Shown here: one piece after another, positions 8,347-64,000 of the stretch
Layout: each line of letters begins with the position of its first letter
Numbering within the stretch: position 1 is the stretch's first letter
Assembly (NCBI GenBank): GCA_963731305.1
Contig: CAVSUQ010000011.1
Location: forward strand, 11,670-75,669
Reading direction: 5' to 3'
DNA from: an uncultured Gemmatimonadales bacterium
GTDB lineage: Bacteria > Gemmatimonadota > Gemmatimonadetes > Gemmatimonadales > Gemmatimonadaceae
DNA length: 64,000 nucleotides
Made by a program: the position numbers and the translations under genes
Notes under the pieces: generated by a model
The model's input: only the letters and a program-made list of their open reading frames with translations
What the model was told of the DNA's origin: nothing
Databases searched by the model: none

Positions 8347-8408
8347 TGCAGCTACCGAGCCGCTCGGACTGAATAGGAAGCGGCTCGCATTATCGTGGAG
8401 AATTAGTA

Positions 8409-9962: not shown

Positions 9963-10154
9963 CAAAATACGCGGCCGACCACCACTGGTAAATCGCTGGT
10001 AGTCCAACACGATCGTTCCGGGCGTTGCCATTGCTCATCGGCGCACGTTGAGATAGCGGCGCGGATAAATCCGCGCCCTACGCAGGGCGCTACCCTCCGG
10101 CGTTTCCTATTGACCGATGATTGGCGGGTCGGCGATCTAATTCACGCTGACCGA

Positions 10155-10748: not shown

Positions 10749-10752
10749 GGAA

Positions 10753-11889: not shown

Positions 11890-14252
11890 CCGAGAATCTT
11901 GTCGAGGGTGATTGGAAGATCACGAACGCGCTTGCCGGTTGCGTGATAGACTGCGTTCGCGAGCGATGCCGCCACACCTGTTATTCCAATCTCGCCGCCG
12001 CCTTTCACGCCGATGGGGTTCACGTATGCGTCGTGCTCGTCCACCAACGTCGCATCGATGGTTCCTATGTCAGCATTCACAGGAACCTGATACTCGGCGA
12101 GATCCGAGTTCACATAACGGCCCATGCGCGGGTCGATCAGGGTTTCTTCGAGGAGTGCCATGCCGATTCCCCACACGACGCCGCCGATTATCTGGCTCTG
12201 CAAGGTCTTTGCGTTGAGCACGCGACCAACCGCGTGCGCAGTTACAACTCGGGGAACACGAATCTCGCCCACATCCGGATCGACGTGCACTTCGGTGAGA
12301 ACCGTGCCGAAGGAATGCATCGAGTATTCCTTCTGCTCCGGCCCGGGCGTCGAGTCGACGCGAACTTCGACAGGCGTGCCACCGTTACGCTTGACGACTG
12401 CTGAATAGTCATCGGAGCGCGACGGGGCGGATGCCAGCGACATGCGTCCGTTGTCGATGCGAACGTCGGCTGCAGTTGCGCCATGGAGCGGTGACTGCGC
12501 ATCGGCGATCGCCATGCTCACGATCTTCTCACGTGCAGCAACTGCGGCCTTGTAGACAGAGGTGCCCGCCGAGGCAGCGGTGAGCGAGCCTGCGGACAGG
12601 GGTGCCGGTGGCATGTCCGTGTCGCCGAGCTCGAAGCGAACATGGTCCGGTGCGAGTCCGAGGGCGTCGGCGGCAATCTGAGTCATGATCGTGTAGGTGC
12701 CGCAACCAATCTCCTGAGTACCGCAACGTACCCACGCGTTGCCGTCGGGAAGAACGGTTACGGACGTGGATGAAGCGACAGTGCGTGCGGGATAGGTGCC
12801 AGTCGCCATACCCCAGCCCACGAGCATGCGACCGTCGCGCATCGAGCGAGGTACAGGGTTGCGCTTGCTCCATCCAAAGCGTTCGGTGGCGATCTGGTAG
12901 CACTGCCGCAGTGACTTGCTCGACCATGGCTTACCACTCTGCGGGTCATGCTCGGCGTAGTTGCGCAGGCGCAACTCGACCGGATCCATGTTGAGCGCCA
13001 CTGCAAGCTCATCCATCGCGCTCTCGAGCGCGTAAGTGCCGGTCGATTCGCCCGGTGCGCGCATGAACGTCGGCGATCCAACATTGAGTCGCACGATTGC
13101 GTGGTCGGTCACCGCGTTGGGTGAGGTATACAGCATGCGCGTCTGGAGCGCCGACGGCTCGAGCCAATCCTCGATCATCGAAGAGTTGGAAGTGCTCACA
13201 TGACGAATCGCCGTGAGCTGTCCGTCACGCGTTGCACCGAGCGTCACGTGCTGGATCGTGCGCGGGCGACCGCCGACGGGACCAAACTGTTGTCGGCGCG
13301 TCAATACCAGCTTGACCGGGCGACCCGTCTGCTTCGCGGCCATTGCCGCGAGCATCACGTGCGACCACGGGCCACCCTTGCTACCGAACCCGCCGCCTGT
13401 GAATGGAGACAGAACACGCACATTTTCGGGCGGCATCGAGAACGTCCGCGCGACCGTGCTGCGCACGCTGAAGACGCCCTGCGTCGAATCGTACAACGTG
13501 AGCTTGTCGCCGTCCCAGACTGCCACGGTGTTGTGCGGCTCCATCGGGTTGTGGGTCTCGAACGGTGTGGTGTAGGTATGGTCCACACGCACCGTGGCGT
13601 CGCGCAGGCCTGCGTCGAAGTCGCCTCGCGTGGTGGCACGTGGCTCGTCGCCGGTTGGATGCACGGCGTCACCCGGAGCTCGTGGACCAGTGGCCATGTC
13701 GAGCTCGGCGTGAGTCGCTGCGTAGGTGGTGATGACAAGCGGTACGGCTGCCATTGCGTGCTCGAACGTGTCAGCCACAACGACTCCAATCGGCTGCCCG
13801 TTGTAGAAGACGCGGTCGTCCTGCAGCAGAGTAGGAATGCGCTGCGGCGGTGGCCGCTTGGCGCCTGACTGTCCGCCCGACTGTCCTCCACTGGACTCCC
13901 CGCCGCCCTGGCCTGATTGACTGCTCTGACCGCTCTGCTGACCCGAAGATGAGTCGGAATGTTCCGCCGAGCCGCCGGCCGGTTTCGGTGCGCCAGGCAG
14001 GCGCATCGCGTTCTCCGGTGTGATGACGGCGATCACACCCGGCGCGCGGAGTGCCGCGCTCGTATCCATATGAGTGATGCGGCCAGCGGGTATCGTGCTC
14101 GTGATCATCACTGCATGTACGGCACCGCGGACCGGCATCTCCGAGGCATACGTAGCCGCGCCGCGCACCTTGAGCGGTCCATCGACGCGCTCCATCGGAG
14201 CGCCGACACTCGGCGCAAGTGTATCCTGTGATTCGCCCGAGCTGTTACTCAT
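11886..14252 (-). CDS. paoC: Molybdopterin-binding large subunit of a xanthine dehydrogenase-family oxidoreductase (PaoC-like)
   Basis: 788-aa intact ORF with typical aldehyde oxidase/XDH a/b-hammerhead and Mo-binding regions (MGGGFG-type FTGGGFGSKG, GTQEIGCGTYT, GVKGGGEIG). It carries a Gly/Ser/Gln low-complexity insertion at aa 88-137. Confidence 0.85.
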   Translation of the reverse strand: MSNSSGESQDTLAPSVGAPMERVDGPLKVRGAATYASEMPVRGAVHAVMITSTIPAGRITHMDTSAALRAPGVIAVITPENAMRLPGAPKPAGGSAEHSDSSSGQQSGQSSQSGQGGGESSGGQSGGQSGAKRPPPQRIPTLLQDDRVFYNGQPIGVVVADTFEHAMAAVPLVITTYAATHAELDMATGPRAPGDAVHPTGDEPRATTRGDFDAGLRDATVRVDHTYTTPFETHNPMEPHNTVAVWDGDKLTLYDSTQGVFSVRSTVARTFSMPPENVRVLSPFTGGGFGSKGGPWSHVMLAAMAAKQTGRPVKLVLTRRQQFGPVGGRPRTIQHVTLGATRDGQLTAIRHVSTSNSSMIEDWLEPSALQTRMLYTSPNAVTDHAIVRLNVGSPTFMRAPGESTGTYALESAMDELAVALNMDPVELRLRNYAEHDPQSGKPWSSKSLRQCYQIATERFGWSKRNPVPRSMRDGRMLVGWGMATGTYPARTVASSTSVTVLPDGNAWVRCGTQEIGCGTYTIMTQIAADALGLAPDHVRFELGDTDMPPAPLSAGSLTAASAGTSVYKAAVAAREKIVSMAIADAQSPLHGATAADVRIDNGRMSLASAPSRSDDYSAVVKRNGGTPVEVRVDSTPGPEQKEYSMHSFGTVLTEVHVDPDVGEIRVPRVVTAHAVGRVLNAKTLQSQIIGGVVWGIGMALLEETLIDPRMGRYVNSDLAEYQVPVNADIGTIDATLVDEHDAYVNPIGVKGGGEIGITGVAASLANAVYHATGKRVRDLPITLDKILG

Positions 14253-49794: not shown

Positions 49795-49850
49795 AACCGC
49801 GCACACGCGCTCAGGGGCGAACTCTGAGCGAGGGTGCGCGGTTTAGTTTC
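49795..49850. terminator. Extended hairpin between convergent DUF4142 and RCC1 genes
   Basis: aaccgcgcac (49795-49804) pairs with gtgcgcggtt (49834-49843). An inner stem cgctcag/ctgagcg is present. It is followed by the moderately T-rich tagtttcc. Confidence 0.5.
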
Positions 49851-51282
49851 CTGCAATGTTATTGCCGGCTGGTGTTGCTGCATCGATCGTGTCGCCGCTA
49901 CCGAGTTCTCCGTATTGATTGCCTCCCCAGCACCACAGACGGCCGGTCACAGTGATGCCGCACGTACTCCACACTCCGACATCGATGTGCTGAAACTGAA
50001 TTCCATCGAGGACCTGGTTCGGCGCAGTAACAGAATGCAGTTGGTTTAGAACCAGGCCCAGACCGTTCTGGCCGTCATCTTCGGTTCCCCAGCAGTAGGC
50101 GAATCCGCCCGCGAGCCCGCAAATGAATGCGACGCCAGGCTGAAGCGTGGTAAACGGGGGGCCGTTGCCGAGGAAGCCTACCACACCGTTCGCGGGCTGC
50201 GATATACCGAATGGAAACACGAAGGCCGCGTCCCAGCACGACGCAGTGTTGGAGCCCGTTGTCCCGCAAACTGCTGACCCATCTGGAGCGGATCTGAGAG
50301 ACGTGAACTTTGTTGCGTCCTTTCGGGTCGGCGTCAGTTGCGGCGTACCATTCAGACTTGCGTTGCCCCAGCATACTGCTGTGCTATCCGTCGCGATTCC
50401 GCATGTACCGTCGGTGTCTGCAGTCACCGAGGTGAACTTGAAGTTGCCCGCCACTTTCGTTGGGGTATTCGTGCCGGTGGAATTACCGATGCCGAGCTGA
50501 CCGCTTGTATTCGTGCCCCAGCAGTACACGTCACCGATTTGTGTCAATCCGCAAATGTGAGCGAATCCAGCAGCGGCTTGTGTAAAGTTCAATCCAGTCG
50601 CGATTGCGCGTGGCGCTTTCGTTCCACTTGTGTCGGTCGGAATAGTTCCCCAGCAATACAGGTCGCCAATCGACGTGAGACCACAAGTAAACGAGTTTCC
50701 GAGTACCAGGCTCGTGAAGGATGGAACTCCATTCACGAGTATCGGCCTGGTATATACTGCCTGTGATGAAGCAGGATCGACCCAACCGCCGGAATTGTCT
50801 CCCCAGCAATAAGTGGCGCCGCCTACTGATAATGCGCAAGCGTGCCTGTCCTTGACCGCTACGAGCGCAAACCTGGATTCGGGCGGCGGTGGTGGGGTGA
50901 TCACGATAGCAATGCTGTCAGTGAAGTTGCCAGCAGCGACGTAAATCGTTGATTGGCCCTGAGCCAGGGCCGTTACGATTCCGTTGCTGGAAACGGACGC
51001 CAGCGACTGATCCGAGGAACTCCAGGTGGCACTATAACTTGTGAGCGGTTTGCTCTGTGCATCCAGGACCGTGTCCACCAGTTGCTCGGAGACGCCGATA
51101 TCCATAACCGCAACGCGCGGAGCAACAAATAGCCTCGTCGGAATCGGCGCCTGCGGCTGCGTCGGCAGCGCCGAACCTGGAGACGCCGAGTCGCCACCGC
51201 AGGCCAGGATGGCGAGACTCAGTACAACGAGATATGGAAGAGTTGCTCGGCGTGCATACGATACAAGGTGCGACTGCGCCAT
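49843..51282 (-). CDS. Lipoprotein with Big_2 Ig-like domain and RCC1-like (beta-propeller) repeats
   Basis: Start MAQSHLVSYARRATLPYLVVLSLAILACGG (ATG 51282). Big_2-like region (ATWSSSDQSLASVSSNGIVTALAQGQSTIYV). Six or seven repeats of the type YCWG.N..GQLG (CWGDNSGG, YCWGTNTSGQLG, YCWGTEDDGQNG, WCWGGNQYGELG). Confidence 0.75.
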   Translation of the reverse strand: MAQSHLVSYARRATLPYLVVLSLAILACGGDSASPGSALPTQPQAPIPTRLFVAPRVAVMDIGVSEQLVDTVLDAQSKPLTSYSATWSSSDQSLASVSSNGIVTALAQGQSTIYVAAGNFTDSIAIVITPPPPPESRFALVAVKDRHACALSVGGATYCWGDNSGGWVDPASSQAVYTRPILVNGVPSFTSLVLGNSFTCGLTSIGDLYCWGTIPTDTSGTKAPRAIATGLNFTQAAAGFAHICGLTQIGDVYCWGTNTSGQLGIGNSTGTNTPTKVAGNFKFTSVTADTDGTCGIATDSTAVCWGNASLNGTPQLTPTRKDATKFTSLRSAPDGSAVCGTTGSNTASCWDAAFVFPFGISQPANGVVGFLGNGPPFTTLQPGVAFICGLAGGFAYCWGTEDDGQNGLGLVLNQLHSVTAPNQVLDGIQFQHIDVGVWSTCGITVTGRLWCWGGNQYGELGSGDTIDAATPAGNNIAGN

Positions 51283-51435
51283 TAATACTCCACGCCAGGC
51301 AAATGTAAGTACAAAGACGTACGTTGCTGCTAAGGTCCTGCGCGACGCGGCGGCAACAAGAGCGCCATAATATGCGATGTCCTTACGCAATACGAAAGAC
51401 GCTGGCAGAGGTGCATCCGGCAAACCGGGGTCAGT

Positions 51436-51870: not shown

Positions 51871-51995
51871 CGACTAGGTGTTGCCGTTCCAAGAAGAGGA
51901 CCACGCCTCAGGCCGAGCAATGAGAGCGACGACGCCCTCGCGATGAGCAACCGCTAGCAGGGATCCCGTCACCCGCAAAGATTGAACCTCAGGAG

Positions 51996-52049
51996 TTGTC
52001 GCGTATTGTCGCGTATTGTTTCGAAACAATACGCGACAATGCGCGACAA
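51996..52049. repeat. 54-bp near-perfect palindrome built from tandem TTGTCGCGTAT units
   Basis: ttgtcgcgtattgtcgcgtattgtttc | gaaacaatacgcgacaatgcgcgacaa: 26 of 27 arm positions pair, with no spacer. It lies about 280 nt upstream of the Rhs start and directly 5' of transposase remnant A. Confidence 0.9.
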
Positions 52050-52330
52050 TAGATGCCTTGATTTAACGCTAAGTCGTTGTAACAACGCGGCTTAGCGTTT
52101 GTTGCGTCATGGCACTCGGCGTGCCTATACCGCCCTCCATGTTGCACAACGTGTTGCCATCAATGCGCTCGTTCCAGTGACTATAGGCAGTCGCTCCGAA
52201 GTCGCGCGAGTGAGCCAGATGCGAGCACCAATCCGGGGACAGTGTCGCCGGGTTCCGTCTACTCCTGTGTCAAGGCAATACAAGACGACCAGTCAAACCA
52301 GCTCGTCAACTCAAGCCCCGGTGTTTCGCA

Positions 52331-55300
52331 ATGAGATCTTCCCTGAGATTGTCATCGGTTAGTGATCGCCATCTCGGCTTCGTACATCAACTCAGATCGA
52401 GGCTGACGAGATGCCTTTGGATCGTCGCATTCTGGGCGCTCGCGATCCCAGCCGCGGCGTATGCTCAAGCGAAAAGCGGGAAGGTGATTCCGCTGATCGG
52501 AGGCAATGCGCTGGTAACGATCTATCCTTCCTCAGACAATGTCACGGTCTCAGGTAGTACTACGCACACATATCAATTTGATCTCGGTAACTCCGGGACC
52601 GGCAACACGACAGCGACGCTCAGCACTCCCACCTGTAGCGGCGCGGTCAGCGGTTGTTCGGTCTCACCGACGAGCGTCTCGCTGCCTGCCAATGGTGCGG
52701 GTGCGGTGGCGACGGTGAGCTATACCGCGGCAGCTACGGGTACGGGCACCATCATCCTCAACGCCAACTGGCCGTCCGGGAACAACGTGCAAGGCACACT
52801 CACCGTGACGGTGCAGAGCGCGACACCTGCAGTCTCGGTGAGTCCCAATCCGAACTACTCAGCCGAAAGCTTCGCCACGAACGATCCTAACTTCTCGGTC
52901 AAGAACAACGGTAACACGGCTTCTACTTACAACCTCTCTGTAGACTGCTCGGGCAACATCTCGGCCTGCTCCGTGGGCTCACCGAGCGCAAGTGTATCAC
53001 CGGGTAGCTCGACAGCCGCCACGGTCTATTACACCACCGGACCATGGACGAGTGGAAACGGCACGGCCACACTGACGGCGACCTCTGTTCTCACCGGTCA
53101 GTCGACCAATACGGCCGTCACAGTAGTCCCGCTTTCACCGGCGGTGAGCGTAACGCCTGACGGAGGAACTCCGAGCCCCGAGCCGGGCGTCGGAGCCAAT
53201 GTCAGTGTGCCATTCACGGTGACTGACGTTGGGAACTCGAGTCCCACTACGTATTCGCTCGTGTGCGGCTACTCGGGCGTTGTGACGAGCTGCTCGGTCA
53301 CACCAAGTGTCCAGGTATACATTGGCTCGCCGCAAACGGTTACGGTGAGCTACACGACAAGCACCAATACGGCAGGTGGTACGGGGCAGGTGACGCTCAC
53401 TGCGACCGCAGGCGGCCCTCAGGTACACACATACTCGGACGCCGGTAACTACAACGTTGCCGTGGCTGATGCGAGAACGTATACGCCGGTTGTCACACCC
53501 AAGGGCAGCCCGACTGGCCAAGCCAGCCCCTATACCTTGACTACTTACAAGTTCGCCGTCAAGAACACGGGCGATACGCAGGCGAGCTACACGCTGACAA
53601 CTCCGACGTGCACGGGCACGTCTGGTGGGTGTAGCGTGACCAGCCCGATCACGGTCAATCCTGGTCAGACCGATAGCGTAGCGGTGAGCTTTACAACTGG
53701 CGCTGCCGGTCAGAACGTGGCGCTCGACCTTCACGCTGCGATGAGTGCTCATGGAGTCACATTCGCAGACGACGGCACGGCCAGTATAAATGTGTCGTAC
53801 AGGCTTCAGGTCTCGACGGCGTTCATGAACAACGACGATCAGGACATGAGCCTCTGTGCTGCATCGTGCTTTGCAATGACGGCAGCAAGGAGCACGGTGC
53901 CGTACTACACACTCGATGCGCCGCGAAACGTAACGCTCGTGTACAACGGAGATCGTGCCTTCCCGAGACCGTTCATCTACGCTGACGTCTCAGATTCAAC
54001 GGCTCCGAGCTCCATCAGCAGCTACACGCTCGAGGTGAAGCGACTGGGCGTCGATCTTCCATTTGTCAACGGCGAGACCAAGCTGACCTTCCAGGGCACG
54101 AGTAGTCCCGCGACGACGTACCGCTTAGCGGGCCAGATCGATATGTCGAGTTATGCGACCAATGTGGACTCCGTGACATTAGTCGTGACGGCTTATTACA
54201 CGAACGGCGAGAGCGACGTCACGCCGGTCAAGACGCAGCTCATGTGGGTCAATTCGACACTCAATACACAGGCTGCGCCAATCGCTAAAGGGTGGCGGAT
54301 AGCGGGGATGCAGTATTTCAGAGGAACGCCCGAAGGGATCGGATCGTCCGGCGGCGGCTACATGATTGAGAACGGCGACGGGTCGGCCACATACTTCGCA
54401 TATAATGGTGCGATAGGTGCGGATCTCAGCACGCTCGCCTACGACAACGTTTCCAAGTGGATCAGGACGTACCAGGACGGAAGCAAGGTCGCATTCGATG
54501 GCGGTGGGCGAATGCTGTACGCTACCGATCGACTTGGGCGCGAGACACAGTTCATCTATGGTGGCACCGGTAATTGGAAACTCGTAGGGATCATTGAGCC
54601 GATGCGTTCGAGTGGTCACTCGACGTCGGCGCCATACGATTCGCTCACTTATGACGGCAATGGCAACCTCTCAGCGATTATCGAGACAGGCGGCACAGGT
54701 GGCCGCACGACCAGCGTTACCGTCGACGGGAGTGGACACCTGACGCGAATTACCGATCCTGACGGCGGTTACGACAGCTACGGCTACGACGGCTCGGGTC
54801 GGCTTAGCACGATCACAGACCGGCGTGGCAACACGACGACCTACAATTATGGTCTCACGTGGAAGCTTTCCAGCGTTGTGAGTCCATCGGTACCGATCGA
54901 CGCTGGCGGCGGAACGACAACAATGGGCACACCGACTACGAACATCTCGCCTTGGCAGGCGATCGGTGTACCATTCGATACTACAGCAATCACTCCAGCG
55001 GCTCTTACGCTACCAGCCAATGTCCTGGCGATTGTTACCGATCCCAAGAACGACACCACCAGGATGTATCCGGATCGCTGGGGCGAGCTATTAAAGACCG
55101 TCGACGCGCTTGGGAACACTACGACGATTCAGCGTTCCGGATTTCTCCCAACTGTCATTACTCATCCTGACGGAAGTGTGGACTCTGCGTCCTACTACGC
55201 TAGTGGCTTGTTGCAGACGCAACACTCGGCAGGTCAGCAGACTGTGAGCTATACCTACGGCAACATGAACCAGCTGCAGAGTGAATCCGGTAGCGGTGTG

Positions 55301-57889
55301 GTGACCGTGACAAACGTGCTCGACAGTCTGGGCCGCACAATCAAGACGACCTACGGCACGGTGACTGGCGATACGACGATTTTCAAGTACGACTCGGTGA
55401 CCAAGAACGTGGCGAGCATGTTCAGGCCGGACACGGGGCTCGTGACCTATCAGTACGACTCCAAGTTTGGGAACTCGAGCACGGAGACCGATCCGGGTAG
55501 CCGGGTGACTCAGTCCTACTTCGATAACTATGGCCGGGACACTGCGGACAAGGCGCCGCAGTATCCAATGACCAAAACCGTGTACGACGTCTTGAACCGA
55601 GTGACAGCACAGTACAACGGAGTCGCCGCTAACCCAATCCGGATCGCGTACGATGCGTTACTGCCGGTATCGGTGCGGGATCCATTGAGCCATGTAGATT
55701 CTACCGAGTATGACGCCGCTGGTAACGTCGCGCGACACTTCGGCTATGCATCTGCAACTGTCCCCACGACGATGAGATACGACCTAGCAAGCCGGCCGAC
55801 GAGTGTGACCAACCGGCGTGGCCAGGAGATAGATGTTACCTACGACCCGCTTGGACGTGTCTTGACTAAGACGGCAGACAGTGCGACGGATCATTTCACG
55901 TACTCGGCCAACGGTCTAATTCAGACCGCCTACAATGCCACTGATACGGTGCGCACTGTATCGGTACCAAGTGCGCTACTGGACACGGTCCAGACGACAA
56001 TGGCAGCAACTGGCGTCACGTCGCATATTTATACGATCGTACACCGCGCGAGCAGCGACGCCGGTGGGACGGATTCGACCACGATATCGAGCAACGGAGC
56101 GCCGGCCCAGTTCGTGACGCGGCGCTACGTGAACGATGCTGCAAGCGGTATGTTGAGCGCCATCAATTTGGGATCAAGCATTGGTCAGGGGAGCTTCACG
56201 TACGATGCGGCCAGCCGGCGCGTCGCCACCGCATGGCCCACTGCTGGCAGCAGCTCCTATTATCTATCGACCGGCACGCGCCAGTATCGGACTTACGGCA
56301 CACTCGACCCGTCCTTCTATGTGGGCTACGCTGTGGACTCGGCGGGGCGGATCTTGAGAGATCACAGGCACTACGGCTCGCCCACGGCGTACAGCAATCG
56401 CGTGTTTGGTTACGACGCGCTGGGCCGCTATACAGGGAGAGACAGTCTTAGCGATGCGACATATCCGTGGTTCTGCGGCGGCTCTGGTCGCTTCGATCCC
56501 AACTACGGGGAGTTTGGCTGCGCGATCGACAGCGTGATGACGCCCAACTCGTACGCCTACGATGACGCCGAGAACAGAGTCGGCGGCGGTATTCATTACG
56601 GCGTAGGCGACGAGGTGACGTCGTCCGACGGCTTCAGCTACACGTACGACGCCGACGGCAATGTCGCAACGCGTACTCAGTCCAGCACGGGCTCGGTGTG
56701 GACCTACAACTGGAGCTCGGACAACAGACTCTTGAGCGCAAGTACGAGCTTGTACGGTATTCCGAGCAACACGGTGAGCTTCGACTACGACGCGCTGGGA
56801 GAACCTGTGGTGAAGCGAGGCAGTACAGGTCAGGTAACGCGAGTCACACTGTACGATGGAGGCCAGATACTTGCCGATCTCGATTCATCGGGGCACAGAG
56901 AGGCAGAATACGTCTACGACGCCGGAACGGACGCGCCATATGCCATGCTCACAGGTACGGACACGGTGAGCGCGGTACGATACTACGCCCAGGACGATCT
57001 AGGGAACGTGCAGGGTCAGTTTGCAGACTACACGCGCTCAACGGAGACTGTATCGTACGGGGATTGGGGTCTTCCGACGGTGAGTGGCGAGACCGCGAAC
57101 CGGCTCACGTGGAAAGGTCTCTCATATGATCCGGATGTGGGACTCACGTACGTGAGAGCCAGGTGGTACGATCCCAACATCGGACGATTCGTGAGCGAGG
57201 ACCCCGCGGGCCTACAGGGCGGGATCAATCCTTACGTGTTCGCTAACAACGATCCGATCAATGGAGCTGATCCGAGTGGTGCGGATCCAGGATACGATGA
57301 CTCCAATAATGAGGGCAGTGGAGACGATGGGGGGTCTTGTACATACACAGTCCGATACCAGTATCCGTTATTGGAGGGCAACACTGGACTGGCCGGAGCT
57401 ATCCCTGGAACGGTGGAAATTATTGGAATGGAATGCCCAAACAGTGGCGTATCACAAGGCCCAACGCCTAGTAGCGGGGCTACAAAACAGCAACCCAAGC
57501 CGACTTTGCCTCCCTGTGCGCCCCCGGCAGCAAGAGGTAACGTAACCTACAAATTCGGGATTCCAACTGCCTCGCCAGCCGTGGCAAACTTTATGACGTG
57601 TACCTCGGCCTGCATGGGTGGTGCTACCTTTCGAGCATCATCGACGTCAGAAGCCCATTCGCTAGCCGACCCGCATACAAGAGGGTTTGCTGTAGATGGG
57701 GAGATACCGGGAAGTGTCGGTCAGATATTCCAGTGTGCGGCAAATTGCGGAGCGGTATTTCAGTTGAACGAATATACGAATCCGTCGCCGCACGCCACGG
57801 CCGGTCATTACCATTTCCAGCTCGTCCCTGGTAAGAACGGCGCTACCGGGCCCTATTATGCAAGATGCACGTACGCTACAAAGCCATGA
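52331..57889 (+). CDS. Rhs/YD-repeat polymorphic toxin (1852 aa): Sec signal, four Cys-pair Ig-like repeats, YD-repeat shell, and a LAS (M15-like) zinc-peptidase-type C-terminal toxin domain
   Basis: Signal CLWIVAFWALAIPAAAYA-QA. Many YD repeats (YDGNGNLSAI, YGYDGSGRLSTITDRRGNTTTYNY, YTYDADGNVATR). Rhs core end YVRARWYDPNIGRFVSEDPAGLQGGINPYVFANNDPINGADPSG. The C-terminal tip contains HTRGFAVD (H-x6-D, 57674-57697) and GHYHF (H-x-H, 57806-57814). Confidence 0.9.
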   Translation: MRSSLRLSSVSDRHLGFVHQLRSRLTRCLWIVAFWALAIPAAAYAQAKSGKVIPLIGGNALVTIYPSSDNVTVSGSTTHTYQFDLGNSGTGNTTATLSTPTCSGAVSGCSVSPTSVSLPANGAGAVATVSYTAAATGTGTIILNANWPSGNNVQGTLTVTVQSATPAVSVSPNPNYSAESFATNDPNFSVKNNGNTASTYNLSVDCSGNISACSVGSPSASVSPGSSTAATVYYTTGPWTSGNGTATLTATSVLTGQSTNTAVTVVPLSPAVSVTPDGGTPSPEPGVGANVSVPFTVTDVGNSSPTTYSLVCGYSGVVTSCSVTPSVQVYIGSPQTVTVSYTTSTNTAGGTGQVTLTATAGGPQVHTYSDAGNYNVAVADARTYTPVVTPKGSPTGQASPYTLTTYKFAVKNTGDTQASYTLTTPTCTGTSGGCSVTSPITVNPGQTDSVAVSFTTGAAGQNVALDLHAAMSAHGVTFADDGTASINVSYRLQVSTAFMNNDDQDMSLCAASCFAMTAARSTVPYYTLDAPRNVTLVYNGDRAFPRPFIYADVSDSTAPSSISSYTLEVKRLGVDLPFVNGETKLTFQGTSSPATTYRLAGQIDMSSYATNVDSVTLVVTAYYTNGESDVTPVKTQLMWVNSTLNTQAAPIAKGWRIAGMQYFRGTPEGIGSSGGGYMIENGDGSATYFAYNGAIGADLSTLAYDNVSKWIRTYQDGSKVAFDGGGRMLYATDRLGRETQFIYGGTGNWKLVGIIEPMRSSGHSTSAPYDSLTYDGNGNLSAIIETGGTGGRTTSVTVDGSGHLTRITDPDGGYDSYGYDGSGRLSTITDRRGNTTTYNYGLTWKLSSVVSPSVPIDAGGGTTTMGTPTTNISPWQAIGVPFDTTAITPAALTLPANVLAIVTDPKNDTTRMYPDRWGELLKTVDALGNTTTIQRSGFLPTVITHPDGSVDSASYYASGLLQTQHSAGQQTVSYTYGNMNQLQSESGSGVVTVTNVLDSLGRTIKTTYGTVTGDTTIFKYDSVTKNVASMFRPDTGLVTYQYDSKFGNSSTETDPGSRVTQSYFDNYGRDTADKAPQYPMTKTVYDVLNRVTAQYNGVAANPIRIAYDALLPVSVRDPLSHVDSTEYDAAGNVARHFGYASATVPTTMRYDLASRPTSVTNRRGQEIDVTYDPLGRVLTKTADSATDHFTYSANGLIQTAYNATDTVRTVSVPSALLDTVQTTMAATGVTSHIYTIVHRASSDAGGTDSTTISSNGAPAQFVTRRYVNDAASGMLSAINLGSSIGQGSFTYDAASRRVATAWPTAGSSSYYLSTGTRQYRTYGTLDPSFYVGYAVDSAGRILRDHRHYGSPTAYSNRVFGYDALGRYTGRDSLSDATYPWFCGGSGRFDPNYGEFGCAIDSVMTPNSYAYDDAENRVGGGIHYGVGDEVTSSDGFSYTYDADGNVATRTQSSTGSVWTYNWSSDNRLLSASTSLYGIPSNTVSFDYDALGEPVVKRGSTGQVTRVTLYDGGQILADLDSSGHREAEYVYDAGTDAPYAMLTGTDTVSAVRYYAQDDLGNVQGQFADYTRSTETVSYGDWGLPTVSGETANRLTWKGLSYDPDVGLTYVRARWYDPNIGRFVSEDPAGLQGGINPYVFANNDPINGADPSGADPGYDDSNNEGSGDDGGSCTYTVRYQYPLLEGNTGLAGAIPGTVEIIGMECPNSGVSQGPTPSSGATKQQPKPTLPPCAPPAARGNVTYKFGIPTASPAVANFMTCTSACMGGATFRASSTSEAHSLADPHTRGFAVDGEIPGSVGQIFQCAANCGAVFQLNEYTNPSPHATAGHYHFQLVPGKNGATGPYYARCTYATKP

Positions 57890-58419
57890 GAATCCGTAAG
57901 GTTTGCGCGCTGTTGTGTATGCCATTATTAGGGGCCACGGCTCAAGGTCGTGATTGCACGGCGCTACCGACAGCGGCTCGAGTAGCATTAGCGCCAGAGT
58001 TGCAGCAAGGGTGGCGCATAGTTGCAACAGCGGATCTTCCGTCTGATGATCGGGCACTATGGCACCAGTACCACCCGGGGCAATGTCCGGGTGTGGCTAC
58101 GGGACACTTCAGCAACAGCGACGACGTCGCCTATTCGATCGCGCTCTTACATTCGAGCTCAGCGGGTCAATACACCGAGGAATTGCTTCTACTGGTCCCG
58201 ATCAGAGCGAGCTATTCACTCAAGACGGTCGTGAGCCGTACCAGAGTGGTAAGTCCGTTTGTAGTGTGGAAATTGCCACCGGGAAGGTACAAGGCCCTAT
58301 ACACAAAATCGGCGGTCTTTATCCCGTTGGATTCTTTTGTCTACGAGAAGATGGAAGCGACAGCAACTCAATATTTCATGCGAGATGGGCACCTTCGATC
58401 TATTCTGATTAGCGACTAA
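57886..58419 (+). CDS. Candidate cognate immunity protein (secreted/periplasmic, 177 aa)
   Basis: The ATG overlaps the Rhs TGA (ccATGAga). Signal peptide MRIRKVCALLCMPLLGATAQG. No family recognised; the call rests on its position directly after the Rhs toxin tip. Confidence 0.6.
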   Translation: MRIRKVCALLCMPLLGATAQGRDCTALPTAARVALAPELQQGWRIVATADLPSDDRALWHQYHPGQCPGVATGHFSNSDDVAYSIALLHSSSAGQYTEELLLLVPIRASYSLKTVVSRTRVVSPFVVWKLPPGRYKALYTKSAVFIPLDSFVYEKMEATATQYFMRDGHLRSILISD

Positions 58420-58482
58420 CGTGATAGAGGCTGTTGGGGCAGATAGTTGGCGGGTCACTCCGAACTGAGTCCATCTGGAGCG

Positions 58483-58640
58483 CTAGTTTTTCAGTCGCGA
58501 GCGGCTCGGGATGAAGTTTCCACCCGTTGCTGTTCTAGAGTACGCTCTTGCGTACTCGGCAGGGGTGTCGTTGGCTAAGCTACTGTGTGACCGCACGTTG
58601 TTGCAGTCCGTTGACGTTCCCCACGAAATGAGCCCGAAGT
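58483..58640 (-). pseudogene. C-terminal remnant of an rve (DDE integrase-core, IS3/IS481-like) transposase
   Basis: The end of ORF 58483-58725 reads ...ISWGTSTDCNNVRSHSSLANDTPAEYARAY. This resembles the W..YN..RPHSSLG..TP.E. tail of rve transposases. No upstream catalytic domain is present. Confidence 0.5.
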
Positions 58641-59110
58641 TAAGTTGACAGTCTGACCGGTCGCCAGAGGGTGGCCAGGAGGACTGGAAGATGCGGAAGA
58701 GTCGATCCACCGAGGCGCAGCACATTGACGTACGGTGTCAGGTCCGCCCATGCGTGTTCTGCACCGATGATCCGGCTCACGCGTGAGTAGTGATGGAGAC
58801 CGAAGTGTTCGCCGATCGCCTGCATCGTGCAGTCGCCACCGGCGACGGGATCGATGATCGCGCGATTCCGCTTGGCCCGACTGCCCGCCGGAGCTTACTC
58901 TGCTAGTGGTTGCTCGGTCGGACGCAGCAATTTCCATCTTTGGGCTGCTGCAGGGCGAACGCAGCGATGCGCCAGTGTCGTCTAGGATCGTGAGGAACAT
59001 CATCCGGTCACAGTCATCGAAATAGACCGGGTCCTAGCCGTCTCCACGTAAAATTATGTGATAGAGAGCACCGGGAATTGGAGACCCAGCGGTCTGAACA
59101 CTCACCGATC
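58640..59110 (-). pseudogene. Decayed IS200-like (Y1, COG1943-type) transposase remnant with DnaA-type HTH tail (copy B)
   Basis: Hand translation of the minus strand gives PIPGALYHIILRGDG-stop-DPVYFDDCDRMMFLTILDDTGAS, then WRIAAFAL, then AKRNRAIIDPVAGGDCTMQAIGEHFGLHHYSRVSRIIGAE in shifted frames. The HTH region is roughly three-quarters identical at nucleotide level to copy A (rough hand alignment). Confidence 0.5.
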
Positions 59111-59582
59111 ACACAACCGCTGGTGGACAGCGTGCGAATTGAGCTATGCGCGAGTGTGGCTAGGTCCTGCCTCGCTGCACAACGCGATATCTGACACCCG
59201 ATTACCCACTGTAGGATGAGACCTACTACTGTCGGATCGCTGCTACTCTGGTGCAAAGACTCGAAAGAATTTCGTCAAAAGTACTGCGCTTTTTGACCAC
59301 GCTCTGCGCTTTCCGGACGAATCGCGCAGCCTTTATCAGCGTCATGTTCGGACCATTTGGCTTTATGCATCGCAGTACGACAAAGAAGCAATGAAAATAG
59401 ACAGTCATTTGTACTCGTTCAGGCGCTGAGGTTCGAATAATAAGCCGCTTTAACTTAATATCAGCCACGTCAAAAAACGCATATCGTGTTCTGAATTCGC
59501 ACTTGCCGGTTCGACGCATACAGCTACGTTGTACTCCGCATCAAGTCAAAGCTCATCATGCGGATCCACTGCGCGGATTACT

Positions 59583-61088
59583 ATGCCGTCGTTCCGCAAC
59601 GCGAGGCCGTCTGTGTCATCGATTGCCGAAGGTGATTTGGAGTCAGTCGTTGTTGCCGGTGTGAGTCGAGAGTACCTGCTCCATCATCGAGTCTGTCCTG
59701 ACAAGCTCGATGGCGACGGTACACTCATCGTGGCTGTAGGACCCGGGGCGTTTCTCGAAGCGATTCCGGAGCTGAGCAACGTATATGGCCGGCGAGTCGC
59801 TACGCGCGAAGCATCGGATGACGATCTCGAGCGCATGATCGAGCGCATTACGGCGCACGCTGAGAGTGGCGCTGAGCCTTTACGCGGCGGTGAGGAAGAT
59901 ACCGCGGACGTTAGAGAGATCGCAAATCAGCCGCCGGTAATTCGTTATGTGAACACGTTGCTGCACGATGCATACGAGGCGGGAGCAAGCGACGTCCACA
60001 TAGAGTCCACACGCGGCGGTGCAGTGGCCCGCGCGCGCGTCGACGGTTTGCTCGCATCCACGATAGAGCCACCGCGGCGGTTGCACGATGCAGTCGTGTC
60101 GCGGCTCAAGCTGCTTGCCGATCTGGATATCTCGGAGCGCAGACGGCCGCAGGATGGGCGCATACGTGTGCGTGTGGACAACACGGAGCTCTACCTGCGC
60201 GTCTCGACCGTACCCACAGTCTACGGCGAGAGCGTCGTACTGCGCTTGCTTGATCGCGGCACGCGTCCCGTCGACCTCACTGCGCTTGGTATGCCGGATG
60301 ATATTCTGCGGGCGATGACGACGGCGATCGATCGTCCACACGGGATGGTGCTCGTCACGGGTCCAACTGGCAGCGGAAAGACGACTACGCTCTACAGCGC
60401 TCTGCGTAGACGTGATATCCGATCGGAGAAGGTGGTAACTGTGGAAGATCCGGTCGAGTACCAGCTCGAAGGGGTCACGCAGGTGCCGGTGCATCGCCAG
60501 GCCGGCGTCACGTTCGCCTCCGCGCTCCGATCGATCCTGAGGCAGGACCCGGACGTCGTGATGATTGGTGAAATGCGTGATATGGAGACCGCCGAGATCG
60601 CGATTCAGGCGTCGATGACAGGCCACCTCGTCTTTTCTACCCTTCATACCAACGATGCAATCGGTGCTCTACCGAGACTGTTCGATCTCGGCATCGCTCC
60701 ATATCTCATCGCGGCAACGCTCACCGCGATTCAGGCTCAACGCCTGGTGCGTAACGCATGCCCGGAATGCAAGTCACACTGCGAGCTTCGCGGTGAGCTC
60801 GCCGACCTGCAACGCAGCATCGCGCCCGAAATCTCTGCTGCTGATTTCGTTCGCGTGAACGGCTGTCCCGCATGTCGTGGTACAGGCTTCAAAGGGCGCA
60901 TCGGGATCTTCGAGATGGTTGCGGTCGACGACGCTCTCAGAGCTGCGATTGCCAGGAGCGCGCCGAGGGCGGAGCTCAAGTCCCTTGCGGACCAGCGCGG
61001 ATACAGGCCGATGATAGCCGACGGAATCGCGAAGGCCGCGCGTGGCATTACAACCATGGACGAGGTGCTCAGAGTCTGCAATGCCTAG
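59583..61088 (+). CDS. gspE: Type II secretion system ATPase GspE
   Basis: T2SSE_N-like N-terminus, Walker A VTGPTGSGKTTTLY, Asp/His boxes, and the tetracysteine CPECKSHC...CPACRGTG. ATG 59583, with an alternative TTG at 59529. Confidence 0.9.
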   Translation: MPSFRNARPSVSSIAEGDLESVVVAGVSREYLLHHRVCPDKLDGDGTLIVAVGPGAFLEAIPELSNVYGRRVATREASDDDLERMIERITAHAESGAEPLRGGEEDTADVREIANQPPVIRYVNTLLHDAYEAGASDVHIESTRGGAVARARVDGLLASTIEPPRRLHDAVVSRLKLLADLDISERRRPQDGRIRVRVDNTELYLRVSTVPTVYGESVVLRLLDRGTRPVDLTALGMPDDILRAMTTAIDRPHGMVLVTGPTGSGKTTTLYSALRRRDIRSEKVVTVEDPVEYQLEGVTQVPVHRQAGVTFASALRSILRQDPDVVMIGEMRDMETAEIAIQASMTGHLVFSTLHTNDAIGALPRLFDLGIAPYLIAATLTAIQAQRLVRNACPECKSHCELRGELADLQRSIAPEISAADFVRVNGCPACRGTGFKGRIGIFEMVAVDDALRAAIARSAPRAELKSLADQRGYRPMIADGIAKAARGITTMDEVLRVCNA

Positions 61089-61545
61089 AGAGCTGCATAA
61101 CTCCCCACGTGACCGGCGTGCGTTCACATTGATGGAACTGCTCGTCGTCATCGCGATCATCGCCACACTCGCAGCGATTGTGGCGCCAGCGATATTCCGA
61201 AACCTCGGCGACGCGAAAACGAGCGCCGCTCAGAGCCAGATCGAGATGTTGTCGATGGCGCTCAACTCGTATCGTCTCGACAATGGCGATTACCCGACGC
61301 AGGCTCAGGGGCTTGCAGCACTGCGCGTTGTGCCCACTGGCAGCGATGCGCCCCCAAACTGGCGCGGTCCGTACCTGACGCGTGACGTGCCGCTGGATCC
61401 ATGGCGACGTCCTTACATCTACACGTTCCCCGGTGTCGAGAATCAGGGAAGCTTCGACCTCTACACGCTCGGCAAGGACGGCAAGCCTGGCGGTGATGAC
61501 GAGGATGCGGATGTCACTTCGTGGGGCGGACCGGTGCATCAGTGA
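61081..61545 (+). CDS. gspG: Type II secretion major pseudopilin GspG
   Basis: Prepilin motif RRAFTLMELLVVIAIIATLAAIVAP. GspG signature PPNWRGPYLTRDVPLDPWRRPYIYTFPG...FDLYTLGKDGKPGGDDEDADVTSW. Confidence 0.9.
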   Translation: MPRELHNSPRDRRAFTLMELLVVIAIIATLAAIVAPAIFRNLGDAKTSAAQSQIEMLSMALNSYRLDNGDYPTQAQGLAALRVVPTGSDAPPNWRGPYLTRDVPLDPWRRPYIYTFPGVENQGSFDLYTLGKDGKPGGDDEDADVTSWGGPVHQ

Positions 61546-62753
61546 TCAGCCCCTCCGTTGGTTACAATGGCCCGAGTGCATTCAGGTATCGGGCTGCGCG
61601 TGCCGATGGCGCACTGCTACGCGGAACGATGATAGCGACGGATGAGCGATCCGCCGTGGATGCGCTCCATGCGCAAGGTCTGTATCCGATCGAGGTGGTG
61701 CGAGCGCGGTTCACATCGAGGCGAAGCGTGCCACGCTCGTCCGATGTTGCGCCGGGCTTGCGGGTGCTGGCAAACCTGTTGGCCGCCAACATTCCAATGT
61801 CTCGCACACTCGCGACGTTCGAGGAGCTCGCACCCAAGTCATGGGCAGCAGCGGCGGCGGCTATTCGCGAGCGCGTGAGGACCGGCGGACGTCTGGCAGA
61901 CGGCTTGCGAGAGGATGCAGGCCTGTCACCCGTGCTCGCGGGGATCATCGCCGCGGGCGAGTCATCCGGTGATCTCGCTCCGGCCGTTTTGCGGAGCGCA
62001 GAGCTGTCGGAAGAGAACGCGGCGCTGAGGTCAGCGGTGCGCGGGGCGCTCGTGTATCCAACGATTCTGCTGATCGCGGGAGCGTGCTCCGTCGGACTAC
62101 TTGTAGGCGTAGTCCTTCCGCGCTTCGCTTCGATTCTTGCCGATACAGGACAGGCGCCTCCGCCGCTGACGCAGCTCGTACTCAACGTCACTTCGGCTAT
62201 CCAGCAAAATGCAGTCTCGGCTGCAGTAATCGTGATACTCGGCGTTGTCGGTTGGCGCATCTGGACCAGGACGGCCAACGGCGGAGTGGTCTGGAGTGGT
62301 CTGCTTCTCCGCCTTCCCGGTGTAGGTGGGATCAGGCGTTCCGCCGCAACCTCACGCGTCTGCACTGCGATGGCGGCGCTGCTCGAATCGGGAGTCCCAG
62401 CGGCCGTCTCGCTCGGCCGCGCGGCGACAGCGGCGGGAGATGCAGCGATCGAATCACGTCTCGCCGCCGCGCGTGCGGGTGTAACACGCGGTGAGTCCAT
62501 CGGACGCGCGCTCGAAGACTCTTCGGCGCTGACGATCGCCGCGGCGCGTCTGATACGTGCAGGCGAGGAGTCGGGCCGAGTTTCGGCGATGTTCCTCCAC
62601 GCTGCGCGCATCGAAGGTGAGAGGGCAAGGGAGCTGACGCGGAGTGCGGTGCGACTCGTCGAGCCGTCACTCATCCTCGTGTTCGGCGCGATCGTGGCTC
62701 TGATTTCGGGAGCGCTGCTGCAGGCAGTGTACGCCATCCACCCAGTGCGCTGA
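61542..62753 (+). CDS. gspF: Type II secretion inner-membrane platform protein GspF
   Basis: Two T2SSF repeats (ANIPMSRTLATFEE..., ESGVPAAVSLGRAA...) and three TM segments. GTG 61542 overlaps the gspG stop (GTGA), with an alternative GTG at 61521. Confidence 0.85.
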   Translation: MISPSVGYNGPSAFRYRAARADGALLRGTMIATDERSAVDALHAQGLYPIEVVRARFTSRRSVPRSSDVAPGLRVLANLLAANIPMSRTLATFEELAPKSWAAAAAAIRERVRTGGRLADGLREDAGLSPVLAGIIAAGESSGDLAPAVLRSAELSEENAALRSAVRGALVYPTILLIAGACSVGLLVGVVLPRFASILADTGQAPPPLTQLVLNVTSAIQQNAVSAAVIVILGVVGWRIWTRTANGGVVWSGLLLRLPGVGGIRRSAATSRVCTAMAALLESGVPAAVSLGRAATAAGDAAIESRLAAARAGVTRGESIGRALEDSSALTIAAARLIRAGEESGRVSAMFLHAARIEGERARELTRSAVRLVEPSLILVFGAIVALISGALLQAVYAIHPVR

Positions 62754-63073
62754 ATGGCTCGATCCTCGCAACAGTCGGCGCGGTGTCACGCTGATAGAGC
62801 TGCTGGTGACGATCGCCATACTCAGCGTAATACTCACGATCACAACTCTCTCTGGCCGGCGAGAAGCGCCCAACTACGACTGCGTCACCGCTCTCGGTTC
62901 AGGTCCGCGCGCTCCGTTCCAGCGCAATCGCTTCTGGAGCTCCGAAGACCGCTGTGTTGAGCGATACCGTGGGCGCGGTGCTCGTGACCGCGCTGCCGGA
63001 CGGCCGCGTGGTGTCCGACATGCCGAATCTCGACAGGAATGCCGGTGTCGTGCGGAGCCCAAGTGCTCAATAG
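62754..63073 (+). pseudogene. Minor pseudopilin (GspH-like), two frame changes
   Basis: ATG 62754 (MARSSQQ..), then the prepilin motif RGVTLIELLVTIAILSVILTITTLS in frame +1. A plausible tail LAGEKRPTTTASPLSVQVRALRSSAIASGAPKTAVLSDTVGAVLVTALPDGRVVSD follows in the third frame (hand translation). Confidence 0.5.
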
Positions 63074-63437
63074 CGCACTATGTGGTGCCAGACCGGGCGC
63101 GGTCCTTCTCGAAGTCATAGTTGCGATGACCATCTTCGCGATCGCGAGCACGGCTACGCTCGTGCGTGCTGCACAGGCGCGTCACGTAGTTGTTCTATCG
63201 ATAGCGAGTGAGGATCGACTGAACGCCGCAAGCGCTTTTCTGGATCATGTAGTGCTGTGGCCGAGGGAAGATCTGGATCGGCACCTTGGCACGCACCCGC
63301 AAGGGCCGTGGTGGCTGGACGTGGAACATCCGGTAGCCGAGCTCTACACGATCGCGATCGTGGACTCTGCGTCGCATCAGAAATTGCTCGATACCATCGT
63401 GTATCGTAGCGCACCGCGAGCACAAGGTGCGTATTAA
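63039..63437 (+). CDS. Minor pseudopilin (GspI-like)
   Basis: Prepilin-type N-terminus GAVLLEVIVAMTIFAIASTATL. 132 aa; the start is uncertain (ATG 63039 or GTG 63063). Confidence 0.6.
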   Translation: MPVSCGAQVLNSALCGARPGAVLLEVIVAMTIFAIASTATLVRAAQARHVVVLSIASEDRLNAASAFLDHVVLWPREDLDRHLGTHPQGPWWLDVEHPVAELYTIAIVDSASHQKLLDTIVYRSAPRAQGAY

Positions 63438-63978
63438 GGCGCCGCGTACGGGCTTTACGCTCCTCGAAGTCCTGGTGGCCGTCATAATCGCCGCCACGCT
63501 TCTGCTGTCCGCCGACGCGGTTTTCGAGCAGTTGGCGTCGTCGCGAGACGGAACCGCCAGATCCACCGGCGTCAGAGATGAGAAGCAGAATGCGGACGCG
63601 TTGATACGCGGCTGGGTGCGACAGATCGACATATCGCCAGTCGGTGGGTCGTCGCAGCCGCACGTCTTTGTTGGCGACGCTGGCGAGACGAGATTCACGT
63701 CGTGGTGTGTTGCCGCTGGTGGATGGGAGCGCGAGTGTAGCGTGTCGCTTCGTACCACGGCTGATTCGAGTGGTGTCGGCGTCGTAGCTGTGAGCGCGAC
63801 AGGCGACTCGGCGCGGATTCAGATGCGCGACAGCACGATCGCGCTGCGTTATCTGATCGATGCCAAGGATGGCGGCCACTGGGTAGACCGCTGGCCGTCC
63901 GGACCGACAGTGCCGATAGCAATCGGCATAGTGAGCCCATCCGATACGATAGTCTACAGAGTCGGAGCGCGAGGATGA
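63427..63978 (+). CDS. Minor pseudopilin (GspJ-like)
   Basis: Prepilin-type N-terminus RTGFTLLEVLVAVIIAATLLL. 183 aa. It overlaps both the upstream stop and the next ATG (63975). Confidence 0.6.
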   Translation: MRIKAPRTGFTLLEVLVAVIIAATLLLSADAVFEQLASSRDGTARSTGVRDEKQNADALIRGWVRQIDISPVGGSSQPHVFVGDAGETRFTSWCVAAGGWERECSVSLRTTADSSGVGVVAVSATGDSARIQMRDSTIALRYLIDAKDGGHWVDRWPSGPTVPIAIGIVSPSDTIVYRVGARG

Positions 63979-64000
63979 TCCCCGGAGCCAATAGTTCAAA

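Follow-up and report, generated by a model that had tools for sequence, protein, structure and literature searches.

The window analysed here is a stretch of 64,000 nucleotides from an uncultured Gemmatimonadales bacterium of soil (C11:11670-75669, i.e., positions 11,670 to 75,669 of contig CAVSUQ010000011.1; the assembly, GCA_963731305.1, comprises 3.18 Mb in 17 contigs and is 76.7% complete). Towards its end lies an Rhs toxin gene with an N-terminal signal peptide (Rhs-1), followed on the same strand by a type II secretion system (T2SS) operon, which continues beyond the window and closes with the gene of a sigma-54 activator, an enhancer-binding protein (EBP), behind which a second Rhs gene (Rhs-2) is situated. 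With moderate confidence, the region is considered one instance of a module that is conserved in Gemmatimonadota and has three parts, namely a T2SS operon of a distinct kind (type A, defined below), the EBP, and one or two signal-peptide Rhs toxin-immunity cassettes. Export of the Rhs proteins through this T2SS is, judging from gene neighbourhood and shared regulation, the rather probable route. The features of the window are the following:

51880-51965, + strand: remnant of the EBP 3' end, with which a duplicated segment starts (the actual end of the EBP gene is in the copy beyond the window)
51996-52049: perfect palindrome of 54 bp with TTGTCGCG half-sites (two direct, two inverted), candidate EBP site, i.e., upstream activating sequence (UAS)
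52110-52124, + strand: candidate sigma-54-type promoter TGGCACtcggcGTGC, its GG and GC spaced canonically (-24/-12)
52331-52465, + strand: predicted signal peptide of Rhs-1 (aa 1-45), read from the translation
52478-53770, + strand: around four immunoglobulin (Ig)-like modules of Rhs-1 (aa ~50-480), weak Pfam matches
53771-57292, + strand: conserved plug-like region and RHS/YD shell of Rhs-1 (PF05593, TIGR01643, NF041261, TIGR03696), with the core at 57056-57280
57293-57889, + strand: variable C-terminal toxin domain of Rhs-1 (aa 1655-1852), candidate likeness to LAS/M15 at motif level
57865-58419, + strand: candidate immunity protein of Rhs-1, 184 aa (177 aa from Met8), overlapping the Rhs stop
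59529-61088, + strand: gspE, T2SS ATPase (PF00437, 1.5e-128; TIGR02533, 533 bits), with the true start probably at the ATG at 59583
61042-61545, + strand: gspG, major pseudopilin (TIGR01710, 161.6 bits, cut-off 88.85; PF08334)
61521-62753, + strand: gspF, inner-membrane platform (PF00482, TIGR02120)
62754-63040, + strand: gspH-like first minor pseudopilin, frame-broken, assigned by its position in the operon
63039-63437, + strand: gspI-like minor pseudopilin (weak TIGR01707 match)
63427-63978, + strand: gspJ-like minor pseudopilin (PF07963, TIGR01711)

The open reading frame (ORF) of Rhs-1 (52331-57889, + strand) encodes 1852 aa. Its N-terminus exhibits several Arg residues, the hydrophobic stretch LWIVAFWALAIPAAAYA, and a predicted cleavage site between AYA and QA after residue 45; neither a twin-Arg motif nor a lipobox is present in the translation of this part. 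The Sec signal was assigned by eye from the translation; the signal peptide of Rhs-2 is 90% identical to it. The Ig-like region, which is also found in the homologues of Rhs-1, yields weak Pfam matches to HYDIN/VesB-like Ig, Cep192_D3, FixG_C, and DUF1573. Each of its modules contains one Cys pair, which fits folding of the protein in the periplasm, where these pairs would form disulfides. Concerning the shell, RHS/YD repeats are recognised by PF05593 (6.6e-16) and TIGR01643 (7.7e-21), together with a partial match to NF041261, and the core (TIGR03696, aa 1576-1650, 76.9 bits vs a cut-off of 32.5) carries ahead of the toxin a DPxGL autoproteolysis motif, YDPNIGRFVSEDPAGL, of the PxxxxDPxGL type. 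The domain search returned no PAAR domain in the protein. The DNA of the cassette has a slightly lower GC content (0.55-0.58) than the ~0.62 found otherwise.

A small ORF follows directly behind each of the two Rhs genes, and from this position a putative immunity role is assigned to the 184-aa ORF behind Rhs-1. No family was found for it in domain searches; it starts with a signal-like sequence of its own, and its product is probably periplasmic. A gap of 1.1 kb separates this ORF from gspE. Transposase remnants were considered for the gap, and the one ORF tested there (58575-59003, - strand) had no transposase match.

The arrangement described in the initial annotation, i.e., an Rhs gene with an N-terminal Sec signal and, across the gap, gspE-gspG-gspF plus three pseudopilin genes, is evident from both ORFs and domain matches. 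In the next 17 kb beyond the window end (L001), the gsp genes continue as an apparently complete T2SS operon of the order gspE-G-F-(H)-I-J-K-(L)-M-(C/N)-D, followed by the EBP and the second Rhs cassette:

L001:645-1580: gspK, by family match
L001, between gspK and gspM: two unnamed ORFs
L001:2772-3389: gspM of the XpsM type (NF040576, 60.8 bits vs a cut-off of 60; PF10741)
L001, between gspM and gspD: one unnamed ORF
L001:3856-5412: gspD secretin, 518 aa (Secretin, Secretin_N, GspD N0)
L001:5409-6414 (= 68739-69744 in window numbering, outside the window): sigma-54 activator (EBP), frame-broken (PF00158, 5e-55; HTH_8)
L001:~6635-12913: Rhs-2, directly after the EBP, 2115 aa as listed, with the real start probably at Met24
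L001:12910-13311: candidate membrane immunity protein of Rhs-2, multi-pass
L001:13369-13704: orphan Rhs fragment after Rhs-2

Thus, of the genes gspD, gspC, gspL, and gspM, for which the initial annotation had proposed to look downstream of position 64000, gspD and gspM are present, as is gspK, whereas no family was matched by the three ORFs that stand where GspL and GspC would be expected. GspG scores above its equivalog cut-off; GspE and GspF remain below theirs, yet have T2SS families as best matches. The best match of GspD is TIGR02517 (267 bits, below the equivalog cut-off of 351), and the protein is short, with a single Secretin_N match. The gspI-like protein is 66-76% identical to its counterparts in congeners. 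The gspH-like ORF contains stops in the expected frame and no pilin leader, and relatives possess an ORF of ~100 aa at this place, such that the gene is probably frameshifted. A prepilin peptidase is encoded outside the cluster (PF01478 match, C4:31571-31915). According to a tblastn search of the whole assembly, there is only one copy of a GspG-type T2SS.

The initial annotation had also noted that T6SS genes (type VI secretion system) are missing from the window. This holds for the whole assembly, in which family searches for TssC, Hcp, PAAR, and VgrG found none. Since the assembly is incomplete, relatives were searched too: TssC occurs in 0/22 genomes of the genus and in 4/61 genomes of the order, and neither PAAR nor VgrG was found in the present genome (G000) or in four congeners with the same locus (G003, G005, G016, G017; 94-99% complete). 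These tallies of 22 and 61 genomes, like the surveys of T2SS and Rhs genes in the genus and the order given further below, include three unpublished genomes (G007, G018, G028), and no claim depends on those alone. A T6SS elsewhere in the genome, which in the initial annotation would have spoken against a T2SS route, was therefore not encountered, either here or, as far as the markers named are concerned, in these relatives. It is extremely improbable that the Rhs proteins are classical T6SS cargo with the T6SS genes hidden in the unassembled 23% of the genome. The incompleteness of the assembly and the few T6SS-bearing genomes of the order leave some room for this explanation, but TssC is also missing from 98-99% complete genomes of the genus that carry the same locus, and a cleavable signal peptide stands where T6SS Rhs proteins carry a PAAR or VgrG-binding domain. 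T6SS export was rejected on these grounds. Export by a type IX secretion system was rejected by reading: the toxin tip forms the end of Rhs-1, and the domain search gave no match to Por_Secre_tail.

Only two Rhs genes, Rhs-1 and Rhs-2, were identified when the whole assembly was searched by tblastn, such that the T2SS is bracketed by the only Rhs genes of the genome. Their 5' regions constitute a 0.93-kb duplication (51880-52815 of the window vs L001:6335-7125, = 69665-70455) with ~93-95% nucleotide identity, which runs from within the EBP 3' end through the first Ig module and brought palindrome and promoter along to Rhs-1. The leader of Rhs-1 contains, compared to that of Rhs-2, an insertion of 153 nt between the candidate promoter and the start codon (52151-52303). 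The C-terminal tip of Rhs-2 differs from that of Rhs-1. The orphan fragment behind Rhs-2 repeats ~55 residues of the Rhs-2 shell exactly and appears to be the footprint of a tip replacement by recombination.

The same operon, with Rhs behind the EBP, ahead of gspE, or both, is found in G003, G005, G016, and G017 (in G016, the locus is spread over three contigs, the breaks falling inside the Rhs genes), and the layout also occurs in two other genera (G027, G033) and in another family (G052). Within the order, two kinds of T2SS can be distinguished. Type A has the order E-G-F...D-EBP and a GspE that is 56-80% identical to the present one; it was found in eight sampled genomes, all eight with adjacent Rhs. 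Type B exhibits the order G-F..K..M..D-E or D-E-F-G and a GspE ~45% identical to the present one, and is likewise found in eight genomes (loci L044-L061 in G004, G012, G022, G023, G027, G031, G036, G039); it is probably the general-purpose T2SS. Rhs genes were found beside none of the type-B systems (0/8 in the order, within the flanks fetched, and 0/2 further ones, i.e., 0/10). G027 carries both types and has Rhs at type A only.

For sampling across the phylum, an alignment of type-A GspD was used, which retrieved 80 loci in GTDB species genomes, 78 of them type A. Almost all of them bear Gemmatimonadota labels (Gemmatimonadaceae, Gemmatimonadales, or Longimicrobium), and loci labelled with the genera Gemmatimonas and Gemmatirosa are also included. 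Two type-A loci (L101, L130) come from bins with the labels Gammaproteobacteria and Polyangiaceae; they encode proteins as typically seen in the Gemmatimonadota set and are likely mis-binned. The EBP follows gspD directly in 53 of the 69 type-A loci with at least 1.2 kb of sequence after gspD. Downstream of gspD-EBP, an Rhs gene is present in 45 of the 64 type-A loci with at least 2 kb of flank. In 38 of these 45 it has the orientation of the operon, with a start that is mostly 1.1-1.7 kb away from gspD. Upstream of gspE, Rhs genes are rarer (10/42); where both flanks are available, 21 of 27 loci possess Rhs on at least one side. Most of the linked Rhs ORFs begin signal-like, according to a crude heuristic of hydrophobicity and AxA.

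Sampling from the other side, with the N-terminal 760 aa of Rhs-1 as query, yielded 59 proteins, which are metagenomic or, wherever a source is named, from Gemmatimonadota. Among seven distant homologues (25-41% identity) whose contigs were inspected, six have an EBP and a full type-A T2SS within 10 kb. Three arrangements are found: EBP-Rhs-small ORFs (putative immunity genes)-gspE..D, gspE..D-EBP-Rhs, and a divergent one. That the three parts stay together despite the changed order is a classical sign of a functional link. The co-occurrence of signal-peptide Rhs proteins with T2SS loci, suggested for study in the initial annotation, is thus found from both directions. The adjacency, with type A only, is conserved at the level of the genus, of the order (other families included), and of the phylum Gemmatimonadota; a lack of conservation in relatives, which the initial annotation had named as a second ground for refutation, was not encountered.

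These comparisons bear on the explanation that the adjacency is meaningless, i.e., that the place beside the operon is just one where mobile Rhs cassettes preferentially insert or recombine. The slightly lower GC content of the Rhs-1 cassette, the origin of its 5' end in the duplication, and the orphan fragment behind Rhs-2 agree with such mobility. A linkage that persists phylum-wide at 40-80% protein identity, through several gene orders and with one T2SS subtype only, does not, and two Rhs genes in 3.2 Mb would place a chance neighbour within 10 kb at only ~1% of positions. This explanation is considered very unlikely and largely refuted by the comparative data.

The EBP is the last gene of the operon and overlaps the gspD stop. 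It is PspF-like, consisting of an AAA+ domain and a C-terminal helix-turn-helix only, without a sensory domain, and carries the GAFTGA loop that contacts sigma-54; rpoN is found in the genome. Ahead of the Rhs genes, the promoter candidate TGGCAC-N5-GTGC is situated behind the palindrome at a distance of ~60 nt (~114 nt if counted from where the palindrome begins), and its 16-mer exists in exactly two copies in the assembly, one before each Rhs gene. A scan with the sigma-54 consensus TGGCACGNNNNTTGCW, allowing up to two mismatches, returned nothing relevant; the candidate has three mismatches to this consensus and was spotted when the upstream regions of both Rhs genes were read and aligned. 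Seven upstream regions of the genus were aligned, comprising every T2SS-adjacent Rhs and a stand-alone Rhs in G011. Half-sites, a small hairpin, and TGGCA[CT]-N5-GTGC are invariant among them, while the spacers vary. In the EBP-Rhs spacers of other, more distant loci, sigma-54-like sites are found around three times as often as expected (19 vs 5.8), distributed over 14 of 28 loci. UAS and sigma-54 promoter hence appear to be a real, conserved regulatory module, and the EBP probably switches the Rhs genes on.

Concerning the T2SS operon itself, a sigma-54 site was searched for before gspE and none was found. A conserved block resembling GAATT-N-GCACTTGC, which is neither a canonical sigma-54 nor a canonical sigma-70 site, is situated just upstream of gspE (59470-59500) and at the same place in G003, G005, G016, and G017. 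In many loci outside the genus (17 of 42 type-A loci), a second, paralogous sigma-54 activator (36-42% identical) is encoded just upstream of gspE (e.g., L064:1466-2089, L083:720-1343) and may switch on the T2SS operon; in the present genome, it is absent from this position, which the Rhs-1 cassette occupies.

Taken as a working scheme, transcription of the T2SS operon would also yield the EBP, which would bind the TTGTCGCG palindrome before each Rhs gene and fire the sigma-54 promoter, such that the toxin would be produced only when the secretion machine is produced. The Rhs precursor would cross the inner membrane via Sec and fold in the periplasm, first the Ig modules with their Cys pairs, then the YD shell enclosing the toxic tip. 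Driven by the pseudopilus, the folded protein would pass the GspD secretin and arrive at the cell surface or in the medium. Outside, the Ig-like N-terminus might attach to target cells, and the toxin at the C-terminus would be set free. The immunity protein with its signal peptide would meanwhile shield the producer's own envelope. The route via Sec and then T2SS, as envisaged in the initial annotation, thereby gains support from neighbourhood and shared regulation, while the export step itself is one that we infer.

Such a route had been called unusual for an Rhs protein in the initial annotation, which is overstated in view of several precedents. Signal-peptide forms (termed 'T2SS' forms) are the commonest class of polymorphic toxins, as judged from the signal alone (Zhang et al. 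2012, PMC3482391). With these, with WapA of Bacillus subtilis, and with Rhs4 and Rhs5 of Myxococcus xanthus, which have signal sequences and act independently of T6SS (PMC10433427), the present proteins share a signal peptide in place of PAAR, LXG, or TPS domains, RHS repeats, a variable tip, an immunity gene (here a candidate), and independence of T6SS (here predicted). They differ in that 'T2SS' refers there to the Sec signal only, with no outer-membrane step or dedicated machine identified, and WapA belongs to a monoderm. Bcn-A of Xanthomonas perforans, a 1398-aa Rhs-like bacteriocin, is active in the supernatant and inactive in an xpsD mutant (Marutani-Hert et al. 2020, PMC7259588). By this description it resembles the present Rhs candidates, being an antibacterial Rhs/YD protein of a diderm with a downstream immunity gene predicted to be membrane-located, but it depends on the general Xps system and not on an operon of its own beside it; a sigma-54 activator has not been described in its case, and it belongs to another phylum. 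In Xanthomonas and Ralstonia, Rhs families linked to gspG are predicted to be exported by the T2SS, which is functionally unconfirmed there (Gomez Cabrera et al. 2025 preprint, 10.1101/2025.05.08.652813). Equally to the present proteins, XRhs family VIII and RRhs family II are defined by the N-terminus, linked to gsp rather than T6SS genes, and predicted T2SS cargo; their linkage, however, extends only to gspG, over distances of up to 5 kb upstream or 3 kb downstream, whereas here, in another phylum, the whole 12-gene T2SS and an activator are linked and a promoter module is shared. In Omnitrophota, T2SS-like loci precede giant genes (bioRxiv 10.1101/2023.11.21.568195). There, too, in a lineage without cultures, a conserved locus containing gspD/E/F lies beside genes of very large proteins that are secreted or at the surface, which points to an exporter dedicated to them, but the giant cargo is not Rhs, and neither a toxin-immunity pair nor sigma-54 wiring is described.

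The regulatory logic also has a counterpart. Within the T6SS cluster of Vibrio cholerae, the sigma-54 activator VasH switches on the hcp/vgrG-effector clusters, so that here as well an activator inside a secretion operon turns on cargo genes via sigma-54 promoters. VasH differs in serving another secretion system and in its N-terminus, which is a regulatory domain; the present EBP has none and, as in PspF, begins directly with AAA+. In a literature search, neither Gemmatimonadota Rhs nor a T2SS-Rhs module wired through sigma-54 turned up as the subject of a paper. What is new compared to the known T2SS-linked Rhs toxins is the dedicated T2SS subtype and its built-in sigma-54 activator.

Several points weigh against secretion of the Rhs proteins by the type-A T2SS. 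T2SS cargo is not recognisable from sequence. In its folded state, an Rhs shell would be close to, or already at, the largest size believed to pass the lumen of a T2SS secretin. Two genes of the operon are broken in the present genome: besides the gspH-like gene, the EBP gene is split by one frame change after ~residue 240, while the orthologue in G017 is intact (338 aa). These breaks may be assembly errors, which is plausible, or signs of a decaying locus. Around 30% of the type-A loci have no adjacent Rhs, with unrelated genes such as those of a TonB receptor/SusD in its place. Furthermore, five congeners (G006, G010, G011, G018, G021) possess Rhs, while type-A GspE and an orthologous EBP were not found in them. 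In one of these, G011 (six contigs), a full-length Rhs-2-like gene follows LigD primase-polymerase and ligase genes (L037 = C6:411000-430999); no gsp genes are nearby, and palindrome and sigma-54 promoter are retained, although a search of the genome gave no EBP. This may mean that the cargo does not need the machine, that this copy is silent, or that the cluster is in unassembled sequence.

Co-regulation alone could explain the linkage without any export through the secretin. The region would then be a co-regulated competition island, in which the EBP couples Rhs to the T2SS while the latter secretes other cargo (e.g., the neighbouring RCC1/Big_2 protein or hydrolases), and Rhs leaves by lysis (as Tc toxins do), in vesicles, or by another outer-membrane pathway, or stays in the envelope. 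We consider this unlikely, though it accords with the best-supported part of the picture, the regulatory link, as well as with the G011 gene that has the same promoter module and no nearby T2SS, with the type-A loci lacking an adjacent Rhs, and with the recurrence of a secreted RCC1/Big_2 protein near the loci. Release of large Tc toxins by lysis is, moreover, described for Yersinia entomophaga (PMC10847048). What such an island leaves unexplained is the link of Rhs to just one T2SS subtype and the cohesion of the three parts through three gene orders; inspection of the loci covered here showed neither a lysis cassette nor another exporter for the outer membrane, and the xpsD result in Xanthomonas implicates the secretin itself.

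Returning to export through the type-A T2SS, the toxin tips offer a hint of what would be transported. The C-terminal 198 aa of Rhs-1 have no Pfam family and no sequence match in PDB. They resemble LAS/M15 zinc peptidases by motif only (H-x-x-G-F-A-V-D ... H-Y-H); in BLASTP comparisons with the M15_4, M15_3, and VanY tips of homologues, only the HxxGFAxD of a VanY-tipped homologue matched, and a single-sequence AlphaFold2 model was poor (predicted local distance difference test, pLDDT, 48). The tips of Rhs-1, Rhs-2, and 22 relatives from the secretin-sampled loci are mutually unrelated (15% mean column identity). One of these 24 is a Tox-REase-7 nuclease (restriction fold), one contains a glycine zipper, and the remainder have no family. 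Among the 59 proteins matched by the Rhs-1 N-terminal region, the tips assigned by Pfam comprise Peptidase_M23 (2), VanY (2), M15_3, M15_4, and phospholipase A2, such that peptidoglycan-hydrolase domains occur in 6 of the 59. The idea that every linked toxin attacks the envelope was not upheld, given the nuclease and the many tips without family; envelope-degrading tips appear common in this Rhs family, but not universal. Toxins acting on the envelope would fit the two immunity candidates, of which that of Rhs-1 has a signal peptide and that of Rhs-2 is a predicted membrane protein.

A nuclease needs to reach the cytoplasm of its target, which is one of the arguments for regarding the system as a contact-dependent weapon, i.e., type A as a type IV filament device that drives or presents Rhs to a touching cell, as the Tad-like Kil system of Myxococcus does (precedent summarised in PMC10433427). 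The short secretin, the several components without family, and the adhesin-like Ig array of the cargo would suit such a device. The gene content, however, is that of a T2SS (GspG above cut-off, GspK, GspM of the XpsM type, best match of GspD), the cluster contains neither a retraction ATPase nor Tad genes, and Bcn-A is active in cell-free supernatant. A contact weapon of this kind is accordingly thought quite improbable.

Export through the type-A T2SS may be taken one step further, although only tentatively, as a possibility that we rather doubt: the type-A cluster might be a separate class of T2SS with the neighbouring Rhs as its dedicated, perhaps sole, cargo, and the Rhs shell a transit container for toxins degrading wall or membrane. 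If so, the shell would let M23, VanY/M15, and phospholipase A2 tips cross the producer's periplasm safely and act on neighbours from outside, and for Gram-positive neighbours no import step would be needed. The cell-wall hydrolase tips in several family members suggest a reason for packing the toxin into an Rhs shell during two-step export. 

For the passage of signal-peptide Rhs proteins of diderms across the outer membrane, one Xanthomonas xpsD mutant constitutes the sole genetic evidence. Here, a private T2SS paralogue, an activator, and a promoter module travel with the toxin phylum-wide, a linkage much tighter than in the Xanthomonas case, and this suggests a role for a T2SS subtype of abundant soil bacteria.

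Just upstream of the Rhs-1 cassette, a 526-aa protein with RCC1 repeats and Big_2 is encoded (49843-51423, - strand). Homologues recur (L053:17422-18495 and L118:11013-11858): G033 has one between EBP and Rhs, and a further Gemmatimonadota locus has one behind Rhs. Possibly, this protein is another cargo, or an accessory component that belongs to the module.

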